A DNA stretch of 64,000 nucleotides from NCBI RefSeq assembly GCF_016026235.1, contig NZ_CP065613.1. One strand, written 5' to 3'. A program made the position numbers and the translations under genes. Of this stretch, positions 1,675 through 50,009 are shown piece by piece. The notes beneath the pieces are model-generated. The model worked only from the letters and a program-made list of their open reading frames with translations, ran no database searches and was not told the origin of the DNA. The DNA is from Escherichia coli. GTDB taxonomy: Bacteria > Pseudomonadota > Gammaproteobacteria > Enterobacterales > Enterobacteriaceae. Numbering within the stretch: position 1 is the first letter of the stretch; each line of letters begins with the position of its first letter.

Positions 1675-3100
1675 TAATGCCAGTCAGTTAAGCAACTGAC
1701 TGGCTCTTTTTCGGGGCTGTGGGGTATTTCCAGGGCCTCTCCTTTACCACTCTCGGGAAGGCCCTTCCCCTTCTCGTCGGTAATTTCACAAGTTGTCCCA
1801 TACTTGCAAGATCGCGCATCAGCTCCGGTATACGTCCCGGTGAAGCGCCCTGCAATGTCATCAGCATTCTCATCACCATTCCGCATGATTCTGAGAAACT
1901 CAGTTGATTCGGCCAGTAACCTTTCAGATGTTCCGCCATTTTAATCATCTGATATCTCACCAGATTATAAGCCAGTAAGACACCCCACAGCTCTTGCTCC
2001 ACAAGCTCCGGCTTTTTACTTCTCAGCGTCAGCCTGCTCAGTTGCATCGTCTGTTTTATCTCCCTGTATCCCAGTTCGATTTCCCAGCGATGACTGTACA
2101 GATCCGCCATTTCTCCTCCGGGGAAGCGCATGGCGTCCGTCATCGACGTCAGCAGATGGCAGACTTTTCCTTTGCGCGTCACGGTCAGCAGGCGGGCTGT
2201 CACTTCATTTCCCAGTCCCGGCCACTTTTTTCGTGCCTGCGGGCTGGTTTTCAGCTTCACCAGATGATCGCCTTTACCCAGTTTTCTGAGCTCTTCATAT
2301 TGCGCTCCCTTTCTGAGAGGTATCATCCAGTGGCGGTGTTCTCCCGCCAGGCTCCAGGCATTTAACAGTCCCAGTGAGTAATAACCTTTATCCATTAACG
2401 TCAGAGTGTTATCGCCGGTTTGTTCTATAAGTTGCTCAGCAAGCTCATTTTCGCTGTTCTTCATCGTGCCGAAGGCTGCAGCCGTCAGCAGATGGCTGGT
2501 CAGTTCCATCTGGCAGACCATTTTGACCTGCGGGTAGAGCGCCGGGTTCCCGGCATGTGTCTGGCGGGGGAAGGCTGCATCGTTCTCTGGTGTATCCGGT
2601 GTGCGCCAGAACACACCATCGATGGCCAGCAGGGTCAGGCCGCACCAGTGCGGATGCGGCGTGGCGTTATGCCAGAGCTGCGCTGTTTTCGTGAACACGC
2701 GGCGGACAGCCTCACTTCCCAGGCGCTGGCGGGCCTGAATAACGGCACTGGGGGCAACGAAGGGGCGATTGCCCGGCAGCATGATGTCCAGGCGATTCAC
2801 AATCTGGTGAAGAGGTTCTTTACGCTCAAGCGCCATGCCAACAATACACCAGACCATCATTTCGAGGGGAAGACGGCGCTTGCGTAGCGTTACAGTACCT
2901 GATTCGGCAAGGCAACGAGAGATGAGTTCGGGGTCGAGGTAATCCCCCAGAGAAGTCAGTGGGTTACGCAGAGAATCGTAACGGGATACCAGATCAAGAG
3001 CCTGTCCAATGTGCATAAAAAAATCCGGAAACAAGTGAGCGTTTCCGGATTCTTACACAGCCACTGGATCGGTCAACTGATCCTTAACTGATCGGCATTA
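1675..3100 (-). mobile_element. IS4: IS4-type insertion sequence, copy 1 (1426 bp, 18-bp imperfect terminal inverted repeats)
   Basis: Ends TAATGCCAGTCAGTTAAG (1675-1692) and reverse complement of 3083-3100 TAATGCCGATCAGTTAAG match 16/18; single long transposase ORF; length 1426 bp equals canonical IS4 as I recall it; flanked by 13-bp direct repeat. Confidence 0.85.
1688..3016 (-). CDS. insG: IS4 transposase (442 aa from ATG at 3016; ORF track extends to an upstream TTG at 3034)
   Basis: Protein begins [20 protein letters not shown]... as I recall for IS4 InsG; contains the IS4-family YREK-type C-terminal region ([16 protein letters not shown]). Confidence 0.85.
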
Positions 3101-4953: not shown

Positions 4954-6627
4954 ATGACTGAATCTTTTGCTCAACTCTTTGAAGAGTCCTTAAAAGAAAT
5001 CGAAACCCGCCCGGGTTCTATCGTTCGTGGCGTTGTTGTTGCTATCGACAAAGACGTAGTACTGGTTGACGCTGGTCTGAAATCTGAGTCCGCCATCCCG
5101 GCTGAGCAGTTCAAAAACGCCCAGGGCGAGCTGGAAATCCAGGTAGGTGACGAAGTTGACGTTGCTCTGGACGCAGTAGAAGACGGCTTCGGTGAAACTC
5201 TGCTGTCCCGTGAGAAAGCTAAACGTCACGAAGCCTGGATCACGCTGGAAAAAGCTTACGAAGATGCTGAAACTGTTACCGGTGTTATCAACGGCAAAGT
5301 TAAGGGCGGCTTCACTGTTGAGCTGAACGGTATTCGTGCGTTCCTGCCAGGTTCTCTGGTAGACGTTCGTCCGGTGCGTGACACTCTGCACCTGGAAGGC
5401 AAAGAGCTTGAATTTAAAGTAATCAAGCTGGATCAGAAGCGCAACAACGTTGTTGTTTCTCGTCGTGCCGTTATCGAATCCGAAAACAGCGCAGAGCGCG
5501 ATCAGCTGCTGGAAAACCTGCAGGAAGGCATGGAAGTTAAAGGTATCGTTAAGAACCTCACTGACTACGGTGCATTCGTTGATCTGGGCGGCGTTGACGG
5601 CCTGCTGCACATCACTGACATGGCCTGGAAACGCGTTAAGCATCCGAGCGAAATCGTCAACGTGGGCGACGAAATCACTGTTAAAGTGCTGAAGTTTGAC
5701 CGCGAACGTACCCGTGTATCCCTGGGCCTGAAACAGCTGGGCGAAGATCCGTGGGTAGCTATCGCTAAACGTTATCCGGAAGGTACCAAACTGACTGGTC
5801 GCGTGACCAACCTGACCGACTACGGCTGCTTCGTTGAAATCGAAGAAGGCGTTGAAGGCCTGGTACACGTTTCCGAAATGGATTGGACCAACAAAAACAT
5901 CCACCCGTCCAAAGTTGTTAACGTTGGCGATGTAGTGGAAGTTATGGTTCTGGATATCGACGAAGAACGTCGTCGTATCTCCCTGGGTCTGAAACAGTGC
6001 AAAGCTAACCCGTGGCAGCAGTTCGCGGAAACCCACAACAAGGGCGACCGTGTTGAAGGTAAAATCAAGTCTATCACTGACTTCGGTATCTTCATCGGCC
6101 TGGACGGCGGCATCGACGGCCTGGTTCACCTGTCTGACATCTCCTGGAACGTTGCAGGCGAAGAAGCAGTTCGTGAATACAAAAAAGGCGACGAAATCGC
6201 TGCAGTTGTTCTGCAGGTTGACGCAGAACGTGAACGTATCTCCCTGGGCGTTAAACAGCTCGCAGAAGATCCGTTCAACAACTGGGTTGCTCTGAACAAG
6301 AAAGGCGCTATCGTAACCGGTAAAGTAACTGCAGTTGACGCTAAAGGCGCAACCGTAGAACTGGCTGACGGCGTTGAAGGTTACCTGCGTGCTTCTGAAG
6401 CATCCCGTGACCGCGTTGAAGACGCTACCCTGGTTCTGAGCGTTGGCGACGAAGTTGAAGCTAAATTCACCGGCGTTGATCGTAAAAACCGCGCAATCAG
6501 CCTGTCTGTTCGTGCGAAAGACGAAGCTGACGAGAAAGATGCAATCGCAACTGTTAACAAACAGGAAGATGCAAACTTCTCCAACAACGCAATGGCTGAA
6601 GCTTTCAAAGCAGCTAAAGGCGAGTAA
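4954..6627 (+). CDS. rpsA: 30S ribosomal protein S1
   Basis: 557-aa ORF, N-terminus [45 protein letters not shown], repeated S1 domains. Confidence 0.97.
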
Positions 6628-23822: not shown

Positions 23823-25248
23823 TAATGCCAGTCAGTTAAGCAACTGACTGGCTCTTTTTCGGGGCTGTGGGGTATTTCCAGGGCCTCTCCTTTACCACTC
23901 TCGGGAAGGCCCTTCCCCTTCTCGTCGGTAATTTCACAAGTTGTCCCATACTTGCAAGATCGCGCATCAGCTCCGGTATACGTCCCGGTGAAGCGCCCTG
24001 CAATGTCATCAGCATTCTCATCACCATTCCGCATGATTCTGAGAAACTCAGTTGATTCGGCCAGTAACCTTTCAGATGTTCCGCCATTTTAATCATCTGA
24101 TATCTCACCAGATTATAAGCCAGTAAGACACCCCACAGCTCTTGCTCCACAAGCTCCGGCTTTTTACTTCTCAGCGTCAGCCTGCTCAGTTGCATCGTCT
24201 GTTTTATCTCCCTGTATCCCAGTTCGATTTCCCAGCGATGACTGTACAGATCCGCCATTTCTCCTCCGGGGAAGCGCATGGCGTCCGTCATCGACGTCAG
24301 CAGATGGCAGACTTTTCCTTTGCGCGTCACGGTCAGCAGGCGGGCTGTCACTTCATTTCCCAGTCCCGGCCACTTTTTTCGTGCCTGCGGGCTGGTTTTC
24401 AGCTTCACCAGATGATCGCCTTTACCCAGTTTTCTGAGCTCTTCATATTGCGCTCCCTTTCTGAGAGGTATCATCCAGTGGCGGTGTTCTCCCGCCAGGC
24501 TCCAGGCATTTAACAGTCCCAGTGAGTAATAACCTTTATCCATTAACGTCAGAGTGTTATCGCCGGTTTGTTCTATAAGTTGCTCAGCAAGCTCATTTTC
24601 GCTGTTCTTCATCGTGCCGAAGGCTGCAGCCGTCAGCAGATGGCTGGTCAGTTCCATCTGGCAGACCATTTTGACCTGCGGGTAGAGCGCCGGGTTCCCG
24701 GCATGTGTCTGGCGGGGGAAGGCTGCATCGTTCTCTGGTGTATCCGGTGTGCGCCAGAACACACCATCGATGGCCAGCAGGGTCAGGCCGCACCAGTGCG
24801 GATGCGGCGTGGCGTTATGCCAGAGCTGCGCTGTTTTCGTGAACACGCGGCGGACAGCCTCACTTCCCAGGCGCTGGCGGGCCTGAATAACGGCACTGGG
24901 GGCAACGAAGGGGCGATTGCCCGGCAGCATGATGTCCAGGCGATTCACAATCTGGTGAAGAGGTTCTTTACGCTCAAGCGCCATGCCAACAATACACCAG
25001 ACCATCATTTCGAGGGGAAGACGGCGCTTGCGTAGCGTTACAGTACCTGATTCGGCAAGGCAACGAGAGATGAGTTCGGGGTCGAGGTAATCCCCCAGAG
25101 AAGTCAGTGGGTTACGCAGAGAATCGTAACGGGATACCAGATCAAGAGCCTGTCCAATGTGCATAAAAAAATCCGGAAACAAGTGAGCGTTTCCGGATTC
25201 TTACACAGCCACTGGATCGGTCAACTGATCCTTAACTGATCGGCATTA
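23823..25248 (-). mobile_element. IS4: IS4-type insertion sequence, copy 2 (1426 bp)
   Basis: Offset of 22148 bp from copy 1; same terminal repeats (23823-23840, 25231-25248); all ORF-track translations inside it are identical to copy 1. Confidence 0.85.
23836..25164 (-). CDS. insG: IS4 transposase (442 aa)
   Basis: Identical protein to the copy at 1688-3016. Confidence 0.85.
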
Positions 25249-29935: not shown

Positions 29936-30063
29936 GACGAGGTTCCATTATGGTTACAGAAGGGAAGTCCGTTATCAGGGTAACGGGAGATTTACAAAAT
30001 TCCAACTATTACTGATGAAAACGCAGGCTGTTTTTGCAAGACGTGAGATTGCTCTGGAAGGCA

Positions 30064-30096
30064 TAAAAAAAACAGGACCAACGTCCTGTTTTTTCG
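30064..30096 (-). terminator. rho-independent terminator downstream of ompF
   Basis: acaggac-caacg-gtcctgt hairpin flanked by A8 and T6. Confidence 0.8.
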
Positions 30097-30119
30097 GCAT
30101 TTAACAAAGAGGTGTGCTA

Positions 30120-31208
30120 TTAGAACTGGTAAACGATACCCACAGCAACGGTGTCGTCAGAACCTACGCCCAGTTTGTTGTCAGAATCGATCTGGTTGAT
30201 GATGTAGTCAACATAGGTGGACATGTTTTTGTTGAAGTAGTAGGTTGCGCCCACTTCAAAGTAGTTCACCAGATCAACATCACCGATAACTTCTACGTCT
30301 TTCGCTTTAGATTTGGTGTAAGCGATGGACGGACGCAGACCGAAATCGAACTGGTATTGCGCAACTAACAGAACGTCTTGCGTTTTGTTGGCGAAGCCGC
30401 TGATGTTTGTAAATTTATTAGTGATCGGCGTAGCGTTACGCGTTTCACCGTAGTTCGCTGCCAGGTAGATGTTGTTCGCATCATACTTCAGACCAGTAGC
30501 CCACTGTTCAGCTTTTTTACCGTTGCCAAGAAGTTGAGCTTCTTGCAGGTTGGTACGGTCAGCTGCACCATAAGCACCAACGATACCAAAGCCTTCGTAT
30601 TCGTAGCTGATAGAACCGCCAACACCGTCGCCGTTAGAGCGGCGTGCAGTGTCACGCTCGTTTTTACCCAGGTACTGAACAGCGAAGTTCAGGCCATCAA
30701 CCAGACCAAAGAAGTTGGAGTTACGATAGGTAGCAACGCCGCCAACACGACCAACGAAGAAGTCATCGCTGTATGCAGTATCACCACCAAATTCTGGCAG
30801 CATATCGGTGTAACCCAGTGCATCATAAACCACACCGTAGTTACGGCCGTAATCGAAAGAACCAACGTCAGCGTATTTAAGACCCGCGAATGCCAGACGC
30901 GTTTTGTTACCAGTTTGAGCGTCAGCGCCTTCAGAGTTGTTACCCTGGAAGTTATATTCCCACTGACCATAACCGGTCAGATCGGAATTGATTTGAGTTT
31001 CCCCTTTAAAACCAAGACGGGCATAAGTTTTGTCGCCGTTTCCGCCGTAACTGTTTACACCATTGTCTTTAGAAAAATAATGCAGACCGACAGCTTTACC
31101 GTACAGATCTACTTTGTTGCCATCTTTGTTATAGATTTCTGCAGCGTTTGCAGTACCTGCTACTAACAGAGCAGGGACGATCACTGCCAGAATATTGCGC
31201 TTCATCAT
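30120..31208 (-). CDS. ompF: outer membrane porin F
   Basis: 362-aa [51 protein letters not shown]-terminal ...VGIVYQF. Confidence 0.97.
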
Positions 31209-31319
31209 TATTTATTACCCTCATGGTTTTTTTTTATGACACCTGCCACTGCCGTCAATAAGTTCTGTCAATAAAAATTTACGGAACTATTGATGAGAGT
31301 TTGGTGTCTTTATGTGTCT

Positions 31320-31425
31320 GCAGGCATCTTTCCATTCAAACTAACGTTTCGCTACCGTGAAAGTGCTACAAAGATAAAGATTTGGTTTCAAAAAGAAAAA
31401 TATGTAACCAAAAGTAAAATTTAAG
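31320..31425 (-). promoter_or_regulatory. ompF promoter region with OmpR-binding sites
   Basis: Reverse complement contains TTTTCTTTTTGAAACCAAATCTTTATCTTTGTAGCACTTTCACGGTAGCGAAACGTTAG, which I recognise as the OmpR F-site region upstream of ompF; exact site boundaries not determined. Confidence 0.6.
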
Positions 31426-31770
31426 GAACTTTGTGAACACCGTCATATTTCCATAGAGGCGTGATGATATTTACAGCAATTTTTATCTATTTATATGATT
31501 TCCTTATATTTAAATTAACTAAACGGAAATTTTGTTTCTGATGGAAACTTTATCGACCTAGCACAAAATCCTCTTTCAGACATCCGGAATGCCAAAAAAT
31601 GGTATGAAAATTGTGCTATCAGCTAAGAAAAAACTAATCCGCAATAAGAATGCGGGTTATTTTTTTGTGCGTAAATGTTGCAATGTAATATTCTGTAACA
31701 GGATGATCGTTATGGCGGGGTTGCAAATAGATTGATTGACTTAACAAACAGATAACTTGACAGAAAGGAT

Positions 31771-31800
31771 AAAAAAGAGCCAGCGGGTGCTGGCTCTTGA
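31771..31800 (-). terminator. rho-independent terminator downstream of asnS
   Basis: agagccagc-gggt-gctggctct hairpin; T-run on minus strand. Confidence 0.75.
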
Positions 31801-31810
31801 AGACGCTAAA

Positions 31811-33211
31811 TTAGAAGCTGGCGTTACGCGGAGTACGTGGGAACGGAATCACATCACGCACGTTTTGCACACCAGTTACGTAAGCAATCAGGCGTTCAAA
31901 ACCAAGACCGAAACCTGAATGCGGAACAGTACCGTAGCGACGCAGATCGCGATACCACCAGTAATCTTCTTTATTCAGGCCCATTTCCAGCATACGCTCG
32001 TCCAGCACGTTCAGACGTTCTTCACGCTGGGAGCCACCAATGATCTCACCGATGCCCGGAGCCAGAACGTCCATAGCCGCAACGGTTTTACCGTCTTCGT
32101 TAAGGCGCATATAGAACGCTTTAATATCTTTCGGATAGTTTTTAACCACTACCGGTGCTTTAAAGTGTTCTTCCGCCAGATAACGCTCATGCTCAGAAGA
32201 GAGATCAACGCCCCAGTAAACCGGGTTTTCAAACTTCCTGCCGCAGTTTTCGAGAATGGTCACTGCGTCGGTGTAATCCACCTGCGCAAAATCGGCTTCA
32301 ATGAAGCGTTCCAGACGTGAAACGGCATCTTTATCTACGCGTTCAGCGAAGAATTTCATGTCGTCAGCGCGTTCTTCGAGAACCGCTTTGAAGACATATT
32401 TCAGCATGGCTTCAGCCAGACCTGCGATATCGTTCAGGTTAGCAAACGCCACTTCCGGCTCCAGCATCCAGAATTCCGCCAGGTGACGGCTGGTGTTGGA
32501 GTTTTCAGCACGGAAAGTCGGGCCGAAGGTATAAATTTTGGATAATGCGCAAGCGTAGGTTTCGCCGTTCAACTGGCCAGATACGGTCAGGAAAGACTCT
32601 TTACCAAAGAAGTCTTTGTCGAAATCCACTTTGCCCTGATCGTTACGCGGCAGATTTTCCAGATCCAGCGTAGAAACGCGGAACATTTCGCCAGCCCCTT
32701 CGGTATCAGACGCAGTAATCAGTGGCGTTGAAACCCAGAAGAATCCCTGCTCGTTAAAGAAGCGATGCAGCGCCTGCGCCAGCGTATGGCGAACGCGCGC
32801 GACAGCACCAATCAGGTTTGTGCGCGGACGCAGGTGAGCGACTTCACGCAGATACTCAATGCTGTGGCGTTTTGCCGCCATCGGGTAAGTGTCTGGATCT
32901 TCAACCCAACCAGCAACTTCAACCTTGCTGGCCTGAATTTCAAATTGTTGCCCCTGGCCCGGCGACGCCACGACTTTACCCGTCACAATGACCGAGCAAC
33001 CGGTGGTCAGACGCAGGACGTCTTCATTGTAATTGGGCAGAGAATTATTGATGACAGCCTGTACAGGATCAAAGCAGGAACCGTCATAAACGGCGAGGAA
33101 GGAGATGCCAGCTTTTGAATCTCGGCGGGTACGTACCCATCCGCGTACGGTGACTTCGCTGTCAACGGCTACGCGGCCCTGGAGTACGTCGGCTACAGGC
33201 ACAACGCTCAT
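31811..33211 (-). CDS. asnS: asparaginyl-tRNA synthetase
   Basis: ORF 31811-33256; likely start [31 protein letters not shown]; class II aaRS motifs. Confidence 0.93.
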
Positions 33212-33380
33212 AATATTCTCTCTGTTAATAGTCGGAAAAAATAAACACTTGTCCACCCGTAAATGGGGGGGATACCTATGTTACCTGGCATCTGCAATCA
33301 GACAAGCAGAATTCGCAAATGCAGTGAAAGATTTCGGAATTAAAGGTAAAAAAAGGGAGCCGATTAGCTCCCTGATGATA

Positions 33381-34583
33381 TTAACTGGCTTTTTTAATAT
33401 GCGGAAGGTCGAACGCTTTGCGCAGCGCCCGAACAAACGCTTTATCGTGGCAGATAGTTTTGCCAGGGCTGTCAGAAAGTTTCGCCACCGGTTTACCGTT
33501 ACACTCTACCAACTTAATCACAATATTCAGGGGTTTTACCTGGGGGATATCGCAGGTCAGGCGAGTCCCAATACCAAAACTTAATTGCACGCGGGAAGAG
33601 AAGTGGCGGTATAGCTCAACCGCTTTGCGTAAATCCAGATTGTCAGAGAAAACCAGCGTTTTACTCTGTGGATCAATTCCCAGCTTTTCATAATGTGCAA
33701 TGGCTTTTTCACCCCATTCAACCGGGTCGCCAGAGTCATGACGCAGGCCCTGATACCGACTAGCGAACTCGACACCGAAATCACGCAGGAAAGCATCCAT
33801 AGTGATGCAGTCGGTTAATGCAATGCCAAGTTGGTCGGGATACTCTTCCAGCCAGGCAGCAAGTGCAGCTCGCTGGCTGTTGGCTAGATCCGGGCTGATT
33901 TGCTGATGTGCCTGGAACCATTCGTGTGCCTGTGTTCCCATCGGCGTGAGGGAAAGCCGACGCGCCAGATCGTAGTTGCTGGTGCCCACGAACCAGGATT
34001 CCTGTTGCAGACGCTTAACGATGGTTTCTTGTACTTCGCGAGAAAAACGGCGACGGGTGCCAAAATCCATCAGATGGAAGCGCGACATATCAAGACCGGC
34101 GGTTAACGCCGAGAAGTCGACTAATTTGCTTTCCAGCGTGTCGAGGGCTTGCGCAACGTCGGCCTGCGGTGAGCGATAGCGATGTACCATTTCACTGATA
34201 ACCGCCAGCAAAGGAACTTCCCAGAGGATGACTTCACGCCACGGGCCGCTTAAACGAATATCCAGCTTGCCATTATCGTTGGACACGGTGACTTGTTCCG
34301 GGTTAAAGCGGAACTCGCGTAGCCAGTTAAGATAGTCGGCCTTAAAGAAAGGCAGGGCAGAGAGCCACTGATATTCATCATCCTGCAGGCGCAGGTGCTG
34401 CATCGCCTGAACCTGTTCACGAATAGCATCGGCATAAATACCCAGCAGATCGTCACCTCGGCAACGAAACTCCGCCGCGACATGCACATCGTAATAATGA
34501 TGAAACACGGCTTGCTGCATATGCAACTTATAAGCATCTGTATCCAGCAACGAGTGCAGAACAGGAGAAGCGAATTGTGTCAT
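33381..34583 (-). CDS. pncB: nicotinate phosphoribosyltransferase
   Basis: ORF 33381-34631; likely start [30 protein letters not shown]. Confidence 0.92.
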
Positions 34584-37503: not shown

Positions 37504-38271
37504 TTACCCCTGTTTTCGCAGGCGAGTTTCAGATTCACCACGCTGCATCACCCGTTGCAACACTTCCGCTTCCAGCTCCGCTAATCGCACCGACCCTAAC
37601 CGGCGCGGACGGGGGATATCCACCGTCAAATCCAGACCAATTTTTCCCTCTTCAATTAACAACACCCGGTCAGCCATTGCTACCGCTTCGCTCACATCAT
37701 GCGTCACCAACAGTACGGTAAAGCCGTGCTCCTGCCAAAGTGACACAATCAAATCCTGCATCTCGAGTCGCGTTAAGGCGTCCAGCGCCCCGAGCGGTTC
37801 ATCAAGCAACAATAAACCCGGTCGATGAATCAACGCTCTTGCCAGCGCCACTCGCTGTTTCTGCCCGCCTGAAAGTGCGGCAGGCCATTCCCCTGCGCGA
37901 TTCTCCAGTCCTACCGCAGCCAACGCCCGACGCGCGGCATTGCGCCACTGACCTTTAAGGCCTAACCCAACGTTATCAATCACCGATTTCCACGGTAGCA
38001 GACGCGCATCCTGAAACATCATTCGCGTGTCTTCCTGAATCTCAGCCAGCGGTGTGGTGCCCGCTAACACATCGCCTGCGGTTGGCGTTTCCAGACCTGC
38101 CAGCAGGCGCAGCAGGGTACTTTTGCCACCACCGCTACGGCCCACCACCGCCACAAACTGACCTGCCGGAATATGTAAATCCAGTTGGTTCAGTACGATA
38201 TTTTCCGCGTAATGTTTGCTTACTGCATTGAGCAACAATGGCGTGCCCTGGTTCAGACGAGCAGTATTCAT
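37504..38271 (-). CDS. ssuB: aliphatic sulfonate ABC transporter ATP-binding protein
   Basis: 255-aa ORF, Walker [10 protein letters not shown], signature LSGGQKQR. Confidence 0.92.
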
Positions 38272-41172: not shown

Positions 41173-41740
41173 GGGCATTACCTCGCAGAGAATGAAGATC
41201 AGGAACCTGAACATCGCGGCGGTGCAATGCCTGCCAGAAAGTTTCTAGCGCGGTATCAAGACGGGTTTGCAGATTTGGCGTGAACTGCGGCTTGTGGTGG
41301 TAATCAATTACTTGTGAGTCATCGGCAAACACGCCGTGCAGGATCTCCTGGGCTTTCAGCGCACTTAAAACTGGCTTAAGGGCATAATCGACCGCCAGCA
41401 GATGGGCCACCGTACCGCCCGTCGCCAGCGGTAGCACCACTTTGCCTTGCAACGCACGTTCTGGCAGCAGGTCGAGCAGGGTTTTCAGCGCACCGGAATA
41501 AGCGGCTTTATACACAGGCGTGGCGACAATCAGCCCGTCAGCCTGTTGCAACTGTTCGGTGAAGGTATTGAGTGCCGGACTATCGAAACGAGCATAAAGC
41601 AGATCTTCCGGGGCGAAGTTTTGCAGATTCCAGTGATAAACCTCTACATCCAGGCCATTTAGTTTTTCCCGCGCATATTCCAGCAAGGAGCTGGAGCGAG
41701 AAGGAAAGCGAGGACTACCCGCCAGGGTGATGACACGCAT
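41165..41740 (-). CDS. ssuE: NADPH-dependent FMN reductase
   Basis: 191-aa [30 protein letters not shown]. Confidence 0.92.
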
Positions 41741-42095
41741 ACTCTCTCCTTATAACCAATTGTTCTTGTTTTGTTAACATTGATAACAATTCGGTCAGTC
41801 TGTCGGAGAGACAAGAAAATGCCAAATATAAATTTTGTGTATCTTTTTCTGAAAATAAACTAAAGAAAGGGCTTTATATATCACGCATATTTATTTGTTG
41901 GATAGTCATTAGATGTTGAATCAATGAATTACTCGTTCAGTTAATATTTAAATATTCATGAAATCTATAAATTAAAGATTTGTCACTTATTGGATTTAGT
42001 ATGCTTGATTTAAATGGCGGACAATTGTTGTTATTATTAAGTCTAATGTCATTTAAAGGCATTATCATATTTACGAAGAGATCAGGATGATAACG

Positions 42096-42638
42096 ATGAA
42101 AAAAAGTGTATTGACGGCGTTTATAACTGTGGTATGTGCAACGTCCAGCGTTATGGCTGCTGATGATAATGCTATCACGGATGGCTCAGTAACATTTAAT
42201 GGTAAAGTTATTGCTCCAGCTTGTACCCTGGTAGCTGCGACGAAAGATTCAGTAGTCACATTGCCAAATGTCAGCGCCACCAAGTTGCAAACTAATGGAG
42301 CAGTCTCTGGCGTTAAAACTGATGTACCAATTGCCTTAGAAGGCTGTGATGTTACTGTAACTAAAAATGCGACGTTTACCTTTAGTGGTACGGCTGACGG
42401 CGTGCAACCTACAGCATTTGCCAACCAGGCTACCACCGATGCAGCGACGAATGTTGCTCTACAAATGTATCTGCCAGATGGTTCTACATCGGTAACTCCC
42501 GGTACCGAAACGTCGAATATTCAGTTAGCGGATTCTGCTGAGCAAACAGTGACCTTTAAAGTTGATTATATCGCTACGGGGAAAGCGACTTCTGGTAATG
42601 TGAATGCGGTAACAAATTTCCATATTAACTATTATTAA
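42096..42638 (+). CDS. elfA: fimbrial major subunit (chaperone-usher fimbriae)
   Basis: ORF 42087-42638; start MKKSVLTAFITVVCATSSVMA preceded by AGGA; fimbrial C-terminal pattern. Confidence 0.88.
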   Translation: MKKSVLTAFITVVCATSSVMAADDNAITDGSVTFNGKVIAPACTLVAATKDSVVTLPNVSATKLQTNGAVSGVKTDVPIALEGCDVTVTKNATFTFSGTADGVQPTAFANQATTDAATNVALQMYLPDGSTSVTPGTETSNIQLADSAEQTVTFKVDYIATGKATSGNVNAVTNFHINYY

Positions 42639-48888: not shown

Positions 48889-48998
48889 TACAGGTTCGGA
48901 AAACGTTTGCGTTTTTTTTGCCGCAGGTCAATTCCCTTTTGGTCCGAACTCGCACATAATACGCCCCCGGTTTGCACACCGGGAATCCAGGAGAGTTC

Positions 48999-50009
48999 AT
49001 GTACTACCCCTTCGTTCGTAAAGCCCTTTTCCAGCTCGATCCAGAGCGCGCTCATGAGTTTACTTTTCAGCAATTACGCCGCATTACCGGAACACCGTTT
49101 GAAGCACTGGTGCGGCAGAAAGTGCCTGCGAAACCTGTTAACTGCATGGGCCTGACGTTTAAAAATCCGCTTGGTCTGGCAGCCGGTCTTGACAAAGACG
49201 GGGAGTGCATTGATGCGTTAGGCGCGATGGGATTTGGATCGATCGAGATCGGTACCGTCACGCCACGTCCACAGCCAGGTAATGACAAGCCGCGTCTCTT
49301 TCGTCTGGTAGATGCCGAAGGTTTGATCAACCGTATGGGCTTTAATAATCTTGGCGTTGATAACCTCGTAGAGAACGTAAAAAAAGCCCATTATGACGGC
49401 GTCCTGGGTATTAACATCGGCAAAAATAAAGATACGCCAGTAGAGCAGGGCAAAGATGACTATCTGATTTGTATGGAAAAAATCTATGCCTATGCGGGAT
49501 ATATCGCCATCAATATTTCATCGCCGAATACCCCAGGATTACGCACGCTGCAATATGGTGAAGCGCTGGATGATCTCTTAACCGCGATTAAAAATAAGCA
49601 AAATGATTTGCAAGCGATGCACCATAAATATGTGCCGATCGCAGTGAAGATCGCGCCGGATCTTTCTGAAGAAGAATTGATCCAGGTTGCCGATAGTTTA
49701 GTTCGCCATAATATTGATGGCGTTATTGCAACCAATACCACACTCGATCGTTCTCTGGTTCAGGGAATGAAAAATTGCGATCAAACCGGTGGCTTAAGTG
49801 GTCGTCCGCTTCAGTTAAAAAGCACCGAAATTATTCGCCGCTTGTCACTGGAATTAAACGGTCGCTTACCGATCATCGGTGTTGGCGGCATCGACTCGGT
49901 TATCGCTGCGCGTGAAAAGATTGCTGCGGGTGCCTCACTGGTGCAAATTTATTCTGGTTTTATTTTTAAAGGTCCGCCGCTGATTAAAGAAATCGTTACC
50001 CATATCTAA
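48999..50009 (+). CDS. pyrD: dihydroorotate dehydrogenase (quinone)
   Basis: ORF 48972-50009; start [28 protein letters not shown]. Confidence 0.95.

Follow-up and report, generated by a model that had tools for sequence, protein, structure and literature searches.

The gene neighbourhood of ompF in the 64,000-nucleotide stretch of Escherichia coli DNA analysed here (referred to throughout as the window) comprises aspC, ompF, asnS, and pncB, all of which are encoded on the minus strand. The ompF open reading frame occupies positions 30120..31208 with its ATG at 31208, and the asnS stop codon ends at 31811; the spacer between the two genes therefore corresponds exactly to 31209..31810, a total of 602 bp situated immediately upstream of ompF. 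Both the open reading frames of the window and annotated relatives place ompF and asnS on the same strand, and the annotation of the nearest complete genome, that of FDAARGOS_943, names the two neighbours porin OmpF and asparagine--tRNA ligase. No intergenic gap in the approximately 48 kb of annotated surroundings is longer than this spacer, which 5424 of the 5426 complete E. coli genomes contain; its equivalent in K-12 MG1655 (986983..987584) is likewise 602 bp long. In most species of the Enterobacteriaceae, the distance between the two genes falls roughly between 550 and 630 bp, and mainly between 590 and 615 bp. Published sites were transferred to the spacer by aligning it to K-12, to the E. 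coli B strain REL606, and to FDAARGOS_943, and conservation was assessed across an alignment of 79 spacers, consisting of this one and those of 78 other Enterobacteriaceae species.

The original prediction had described this interval as an AT-rich regulatory region of about 600 bp containing many A/T tracts, a description that the composition of the spacer bears out. Its G+C content is 0.342, compared with 0.511 for the whole window, making it the most AT-rich 602-bp span present; a G+C content this low occurs in just 0.085% of 602-bp spans, and the AT-richness is real and beyond chance. One other region of the window reaches a G+C content of 0.36 or less over 602 bp (spans starting at 41603-41826). 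This second most AT-rich span, at approximately 41600-42430, lies between ssuE and the elf fimbrial genes, in a spacer where FDAARGOS_943 carries IS1 and IS5 elements (at approximately 42040-42045) that are absent from the window. Runs of five or more A or T residues number 9 in the ompF-asnS spacer, a threefold enrichment over the 3.0 ± 1.6 found in shuffled sequence (p = 0.002), while the excess of runs of four or more is marginal (14 vs 9.4, p = 0.065). Between F1 and F4, the proximal and distal OmpR sites (31420-31700), AA/TT dinucleotides recur with a 10.5-bp periodicity whose power is 1.21, against 0.23 ± 0.23 in shuffled sequence; 0.4% of shuffles reach the observed power, with 13 periods having been tested.

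One reading of such a composition would be that it is ordinary for intergenic DNA, perhaps attracting non-specific binding of the H-NS type, and that specific distal sites are lacking. Scans for IHF sites, OmpR half-sites, and CRP cores do not rise above shuffled expectation window-wide, the shorter A/T tracts are enriched only marginally, and the window's other AT-rich span likewise falls in a spacer, located upstream of the fimbrial elf operon. Composition of this kind is nevertheless at odds with the conservation of a spacer length of about 600 bp across many genera, with the enrichment of the longer tracts, and with the helical phasing of AA/TT dinucleotides. It is equally at odds with a conservation profile in which, across the 79 spacers, discrete blocks conserved at 70-97% are separated by stretches at about 30%, and with the published genetics as cited in PMC543474 and PMC3050692, according to which F4 is required for ompF repression. 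We regard this reading as highly improbable.

The most strongly conserved portion of the spacer is that nearest to ompF, where the leader, the core promoter, and F3 are nearly invariant among the 79 species and conservation in F1-F2 is high. The three proximal OmpR boxes are described in PMC1489923 as 20 bp each, with key bases A4C5, A14C15, A34C35, and C53 and with two unassigned bases between F2 and F3, definitions that fit TTTACTTTTGGTTACATATT / TTTTCTTTTTGAAACCAAAT / CT / TTATCTTTGTAGCACTTTCA exactly. Alignment to K-12 together with this description places the boxes of the present strain on the minus strand at 31358..31418. F1 (31418..31400, TTTACTTTTGGTTACATAT) is 19 bp long, having one T fewer than the T6 run of K-12, whereas F2 (31399..31380, TTTTCTTTTTGAAACCAAAT) and F3 (31377..31358, TTATCTTTGTAGCACTTTCA), which are separated by the dinucleotide CT, are identical to those of K-12. 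The tandem F1-F2-F3 array abuts the -35 region with its key AC dinucleotides spaced approximately 10 bp apart, F1/F2 being 1 bp short, and the cores of the three boxes (TTACA, (G/T)(A/T)AAC, and GTAGCAC) are conserved in the 79 species. The cluster of OmpR sites foreseen close to the promoter is thus present at 31418..31358 with sequences matching those in PMC1489923.

Downstream of this array lies the core promoter (31326..31354, minus strand), which is identical to that of K-12 and consists of a weak -35 hexamer, TAGCGA (31354..31349), a 17-bp spacer, and a -10 hexamer, AAAGAT (31331..31326). Among 100 species, the promoter sequence GGAAAGATGCC is almost invariant, and the -10 region and the 5' end of the leader are nearly so. 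A generic sigma-70 scan did not call the ompF core promoter, as expected for a promoter that depends on an activator. The usual numbering, which we take to place F1 at -100..-81 and the end of F3 at -39, puts the start site at an A at 31319, and from this K-12 numbering we infer that ompF transcription probably begins there. A single promoter is known for ompF (PMC3082872).

The 5' untranslated leader would accordingly extend over 31209..31319 (minus strand), giving it 111 nt against 110 in K-12; an A run at 31227-31235 is A9 here and A8 in K-12. Leader identity averages 77% per column over 100 species, and RNAalifold predicts a stem-loop of 16 pairs, 6 of which show compensatory changes, that matches the long ompF leader stem-loop described previously (PMC1489923). 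At the 3' end of the leader is the pairing target of the antisense RNA MicF, CAUGAGGGUAAUAAAUAAUGAUGAAGCG (31198..31225, minus strand), which covers the Shine-Dalgarno sequence GAGGG, the AUG (31208..31206), and the first codons. Using the K-12 MicF sequence from its annotated record (micF lies at 2313084-2313176 in K-12, next to ompC), RNAduplex pairs nucleotides 1-34 of MicF with 31225..31198 at -27.4 kcal/mol. Shuffled MicF controls gave -13.4 ± 2.6 kcal/mol with a minimum of -21.0, so that the real duplex is about 5 standard deviations better. The expectation that the ompF leader and start region would be the target of MicF therefore holds as regards pairing, but the target comprises only 28 nt, namely the last 17 of the leader and the first 11 of the coding sequence, and those 11 lie beyond the spacer. 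At least 120 Enterobacterales loci, counting one genome per species, contain an exact match to a 24-nt core of the target, AGGGTAATAAATAATGATGAARCG, and post-transcriptional control of ompF has been reported to depend on MicF (PMC5175337). That MicF is encoded elsewhere, as had also been proposed, agrees with an Rfam scan of the 64-kb window, in which MicF (RF00033) had no match at the gathering score. The same scan found one family above threshold in the window, the PyrD leader (RF02373, 97.9 bits) at 48931-49004 on the plus strand. A further MicF duplex, at 38155..38124 (minus strand) in ssuB (-28.9 kcal/mol), was dismissed as chance, being composed largely of G-U pairs and lying inside a coding sequence.

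The distal OmpR site, F4, was located by alignment to K-12 as GTTACAGAATATTACATTGC at 31680..31699 on the minus strand, which corresponds to -380..-361 from the probable start site. It is located 261 bp upstream of F1, in keeping with the published distance of 260 bp from F1-F2-F3 (PMC3050692). The site reads GTTACGGAAT... in K-12, from which the present sequence differs by one substitution, G-to-A at 31694. At least 70-90% of the 79 spacers retain the GTTAC core, and the conserved pattern as a whole is GTTAC ... TTTC ... GAAAYAT. The distal OmpR site that had been anticipated is consequently in place at 31699..31680 with its core mostly kept, although the motif search that had been suggested as a means of finding it was successful only in part: F4 is recovered by alignment, whereas its motif ranking is weak. 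Scored with a crude OmpR position weight matrix, which was built from F1-F3 and so recovers those three sites by construction, F4 ranks 156th of 127,962 positions. A weak match is as expected for a low-affinity site, and F4 would not be found from the sequence motif alone.

Several other candidates for OmpR-related features were considered and set aside. A match to the crude matrix at 31534-31553 on the plus strand was taken as chance, the DNA there being unconserved, and the OmpR half-site spacing pattern GNNACNNNNNGNNAC was uninformative, its sole match in the spacer falling in the leader. A 22-nt complementarity between the F4 region and the start of ompF (an inverted repeat with 77% identity) was likewise attributed to chance, as 711 bp of AT-rich DNA contain 14 pairs of this kind.

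Between F4 and F1, the alignment of 79 spacers reveals additional conserved blocks. The block TTAGTTAATTTAAATATAAGGAAATCATATAAATAG at 31485..31523 (-166..-204), roughly midway between the two sites, has a conservation of 0.57-0.82, and within it ATAAG..AA(A/T)TCATATA.ATAG is nearly invariant among the 79 species (consensus form ATAAG..AATTCATATA.ATAG). It is a candidate IHF bend region, and we presume it to be the putative bend site expected from the work of Huang, Ramani, and Freundlich. The IHF consensus WATCAANNNNTTR, with one mismatch or fewer allowed, matched at 60 positions window-wide against 53 expected, which is no enrichment, and the only two one-mismatch matches in the spacer both lie outside this block. 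A second block, GAAATATGACGGTGTTCACAAAGTTCC at 31424..31450 (-105..-131), has a conservation of 0.71-0.84, and its GTTCACAAAGTTCC portion is nearly invariant among the 79 species. It contains a CRP-like core, TGTGA-N6-TCATA, at 31432-31447 on the plus strand, one of three one-mismatch matches to the CRP core in the 64 kb. CRP is a direct activator of ompF in Yersinia pestis, and its effect in E. coli is believed to be indirect (PMC3050693); the block is a candidate CRP site only. Two further blocks in the alignment are ATCCGGAYGTCT, which is partly palindromic, at -255..-275, and ATAGCACA at -292..-301. Block boundaries in the distal half are approximate because the alignment between genera is about 50-70% identical there.

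At the far end of the spacer, a terminator scan identified an intrinsic terminator for asnS at 31775..31798 on the minus strand (-17.8 kcal/mol), formed by a 10-bp stem (AAGAGCCAGC/GCTGGCTCTT), a 4-nt loop, and a T6 run extending down to about 31769. The structure has the pattern of an intrinsic terminator, a G+C-rich stem-loop followed by a T run directly 3' of a gene, and its stem is kept across genera with compensatory changes (GGCCAGC/GCTGGCC, GACCGC/GCGGTC, and GGTCGGC/GCCGGCC). The outermost 110 bp or so of the spacer (31701-31810), which hold this terminator and the 3' end of asnS, are 43% G+C. The claim that the ompF regulatory region extends about 400 bp further upstream therefore requires trimming, for while most of this DNA is probably ompF regulatory DNA, the outermost 110 bp or so belong to asnS.

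Just downstream of F4, which thus sits between two hairpins, is a second hairpin, flanked by A and T runs (31635..31668, with the stem-loop at 31635-31659), which the terminator scan picks up on either strand. Its energies are -13.4 kcal/mol on the plus strand and -10.1 on the minus strand, compared with -19.7 and -20.1 in K-12; the predicted structure is a perfect two-way terminator in K-12 that is weakened in this strain by a mismatch. Compensatory changes occur in Salmonella (CCTTA/TAAGG) and Kosakonia (CCACA/TGTGG), but beyond Escherichia, Kosakonia, and a handful of others the hairpin is mostly lacking. It is terminator-like in 7 of the 79 species on the ompF strand and in 15 on the opposite strand, and the notion of a deeply conserved terminator was rejected on these numbers. 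A permissive Rfam scan of 30000-33400 yielded no family at the gathering score inside the spacer. The sub-threshold matches, which resembled STnc240 and the Thr and Trp leaders, were rejected as driven by the hairpin and T run; the best in the spacer was STnc240, which scored 27.4 bits (E = 0.38) where the threshold is 55.

Promoter and terminator scans together delimit a candidate opposite-strand transcription unit at 31470..31668 (plus strand), with a promoter-like TTTACA-18-TATGAT at 31470-31499 and, at 31635-31668, the hairpin with its T7 run, which would frame an RNA of approximately 160 nt. A transcript and putative small ORF designated 'C0240' has been reported in K-12 on the strand opposite to ompF and asnS, between the two genes (PMC3082872), and the candidate unit probably corresponds to it. 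An opposite-strand ORF runs from 31589 to 31735 (plus strand). It encodes 48 amino acids here because the stop codon inside the hairpin arm has been lost, whereas in K-12 that stop limits the product to 23 amino acids (MPKNSMKIVLLAKKKLIRNKNAD); the Salmonella counterpart is in another frame. Since stop codon and frame vary in this way, a conserved small protein was rejected.

These features lend themselves to a different reading of the distal 400 bp, in which they would consist mostly of the asnS 3' end, with two successive terminators, and an independent opposite-strand unit, C0240. The asnS terminator, the second hairpin with its terminator scores on both strands, the plus-strand promoter-like site, and the transcript reported in K-12 are all compatible with such an arrangement. 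It accommodates less readily the conserved F4 lodged between the two hairpins, the variable ORF, and the -35-like hexamer, which sits in poorly conserved DNA in the 79-spacer alignment, and just 7-15 of the 79 species have a terminator-like second hairpin, yet the spacer length and the blocks are conserved. The two readings are moreover not exclusive, as a divergent transcript can coexist with regulatory sites. We consider it unlikely that the distal DNA is mainly of this nature, and favor its assignment to ompF regulation up to the asnS portion.

The spacer of this strain is not identical to that of K-12, and it has to be asked whether the differences alter its function. The T6 run of K-12 at the F1/F2 junction has one T fewer here (31396-31400), and the GTTACG of K-12 F4 is GTTACA, the G-to-A at 31694 being common to this strain and FDAARGOS_943. 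An F1/F2 spacing that is kept in 78 of the 78 other Enterobacteriaceae species is 1 bp shorter in this strain, and OmpR cooperativity could therefore differ. The same 1-bp deletion is present in E. coli B (REL606 and BL21), in which the 90-mer at 31354-31443 is identical. Among 5426 complete E. coli genomes, 42 carry this exact 90-mer, and 12 of the 12 among the matches listed are laboratory strains of the B lineage. REL606 otherwise has the K-12 haplotype (G in F4, a perfect second hairpin, and A8), and a deletion on a K-12-like spacer suggests recurrent slippage; the T deletions in this strain and in E. coli B are probably either independent or the result of recombination. Relative to FDAARGOS_943, to which window positions 8000-56000 were compared, there are 12 differences over about 46.6 kb, 3 of which fall in the spacer (an indel at 31227 and changes at 31307 and 31560). 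Only 0.16 would be expected there (Poisson p about 5e-4), a test that is generous because intergenic DNA tolerates more change than coding DNA.

Taken jointly, the F1/F2 loss, the F4 G-to-A change, the weak hairpin, and A9 might constitute a functionally altered allele in which the level or the osmoregulation of OmpF is shifted, possibly under selection. The invariance of the F1/F2 spacing in other species, the distribution of the 90-mer, the apparent recurrence of the deletion, and the clustering of differences from FDAARGOS_943 all lean in this direction, as does the report that SNPs in the ompF-asnS spacer track host source in E. coli, for which they already serve as markers (PMC5007776). 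They are counterbalanced by the generosity of the clustering test and by the nature of the changes, for changes in homopolymer length are common and can stem from sequencing errors, the A9 run occurs in the window only, and the leader A run naturally varies among species from about A5 to A10. The T deletion is, furthermore, shared with E. coli B strains, which are known to make OmpF. The strain-specific changes in the spacer may be neutral or partly sequencing artefacts, and a functionally altered allele seems to us rather doubtful.

Larger changes were also noted among the genomes compared. In E. coli MEW (NZ_CM192120.1), the spacer matches in two pieces and an IS200C transposase gene is annotated under the match, which indicates an insertion sequence inside the putative ompF regulatory region of that strain. 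The window itself contains a 1426-bp IS4-type insertion sequence in two identical copies, at about 1675-3100 and at 23823-25248. The latter copy is missing from the corresponding site in FDAARGOS_943, and the element is annotated as an IS4 family transposase in other genomes. Elsewhere in the window, three 72-nt direct repeats with 68-71% identity, spaced 261 nt apart at 5665-6258 (plus strand), look like repeated protein domains in one gene, possibly the S1 domains of rpsA.

Considered as a whole, the interval 31209-31810 is almost certainly the ompF promoter-regulatory region together with the mRNA leader, organized as in K-12. The features that can be read from the sequence all appear consistent with the published ompF model, from which occupancy, looping, and the start site are taken to follow. 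Proceeding on the minus strand from asnS toward ompF, the region comprises the asnS terminator, the weak F4 site, and the two-way hairpin. Next come approximately 260 bp of DNA that is AT-rich, helically phased, and marked by conserved putative protein-binding blocks, in which IHF would be expected at -166..-204, and then F1-F2-F3 (-99..-39), a weak and putatively OmpR-dependent sigma-70 promoter, and the structured leader of 111 nt. By analogy with the OmpR-P model (PMC543474, PMC3050692, PMC3050693), low levels of OmpR-P at low osmolarity would lead to OmpR occupancy of F1-F2(-F3) and activation of ompF. At high osmolarity, and thus high OmpR-P, F4 would be filled as well, and a loop between F4 and F1-F3, aided by the intervening bend, would turn ompF off, as in the F4-dependent looping model (PMC3050692, PMC3050693). 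The 10.5-bp AA/TT phasing lends such a loop indirect support. After transcription, MicF, encoded next to ompC, would pair with the ribosome-binding site and start codon and block translation.

Beyond this scheme, the distal half may hold more than F4 and IHF. The blocks at -105..-131, -255..-275, and -292..-301 are conserved in about 80 species, and the candidate opposite-strand RNA (C0240) would end at the two-way terminator next to F4. Separately, the loss of a T at F1/F2 could act as a homopolymer switch that arises repeatedly and adjusts OmpR cooperativity at ompF. These extensions are speculative, and we think it quite improbable that they will hold.

Control of ompF is a classic model both for a single response regulator that activates and represses and for regulation by an antisense RNA, and the ompF control region described here is already known, textbook biology to which the present refinements are small. 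The analysis confirms the annotation of the region and adds no new biology, but the cross-species footprint does offer a compact map of the constrained parts within some 600 bp. Even small changes of the kind found in this strain could matter in practice because the level of OmpF affects the entry of antibiotics, bile, and phage.

Comparison with known systems underlines how closely this locus follows an established plan. The spacer is approximately 97.5% identical to that of K-12, from which it differs at 19 of 602 positions, and F1-F4, the promoter, and the leader all align. The MicF-ompF pair of K-12 has an identical duplex target sequence, with one extra A here just 5' of the duplex. In Pantoea and Erwinia, the ompF-asnS spacer is only about 301 bp long, compared with about 600 bp in most Enterobacteriaceae, and Y. 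pestis reportedly has no F4 and shows no repression of ompF at high osmolarity (PMC3050692). Across other Enterobacterales, including Salmonella, Citrobacter, Enterobacter, and Klebsiella as well as Yersinia and Pantoea, F1-F3, the promoter, the leader, and the MicF target are conserved, and in other Enterobacteriaceae the same conserved blocks recur within a spacer of about 600 bp.
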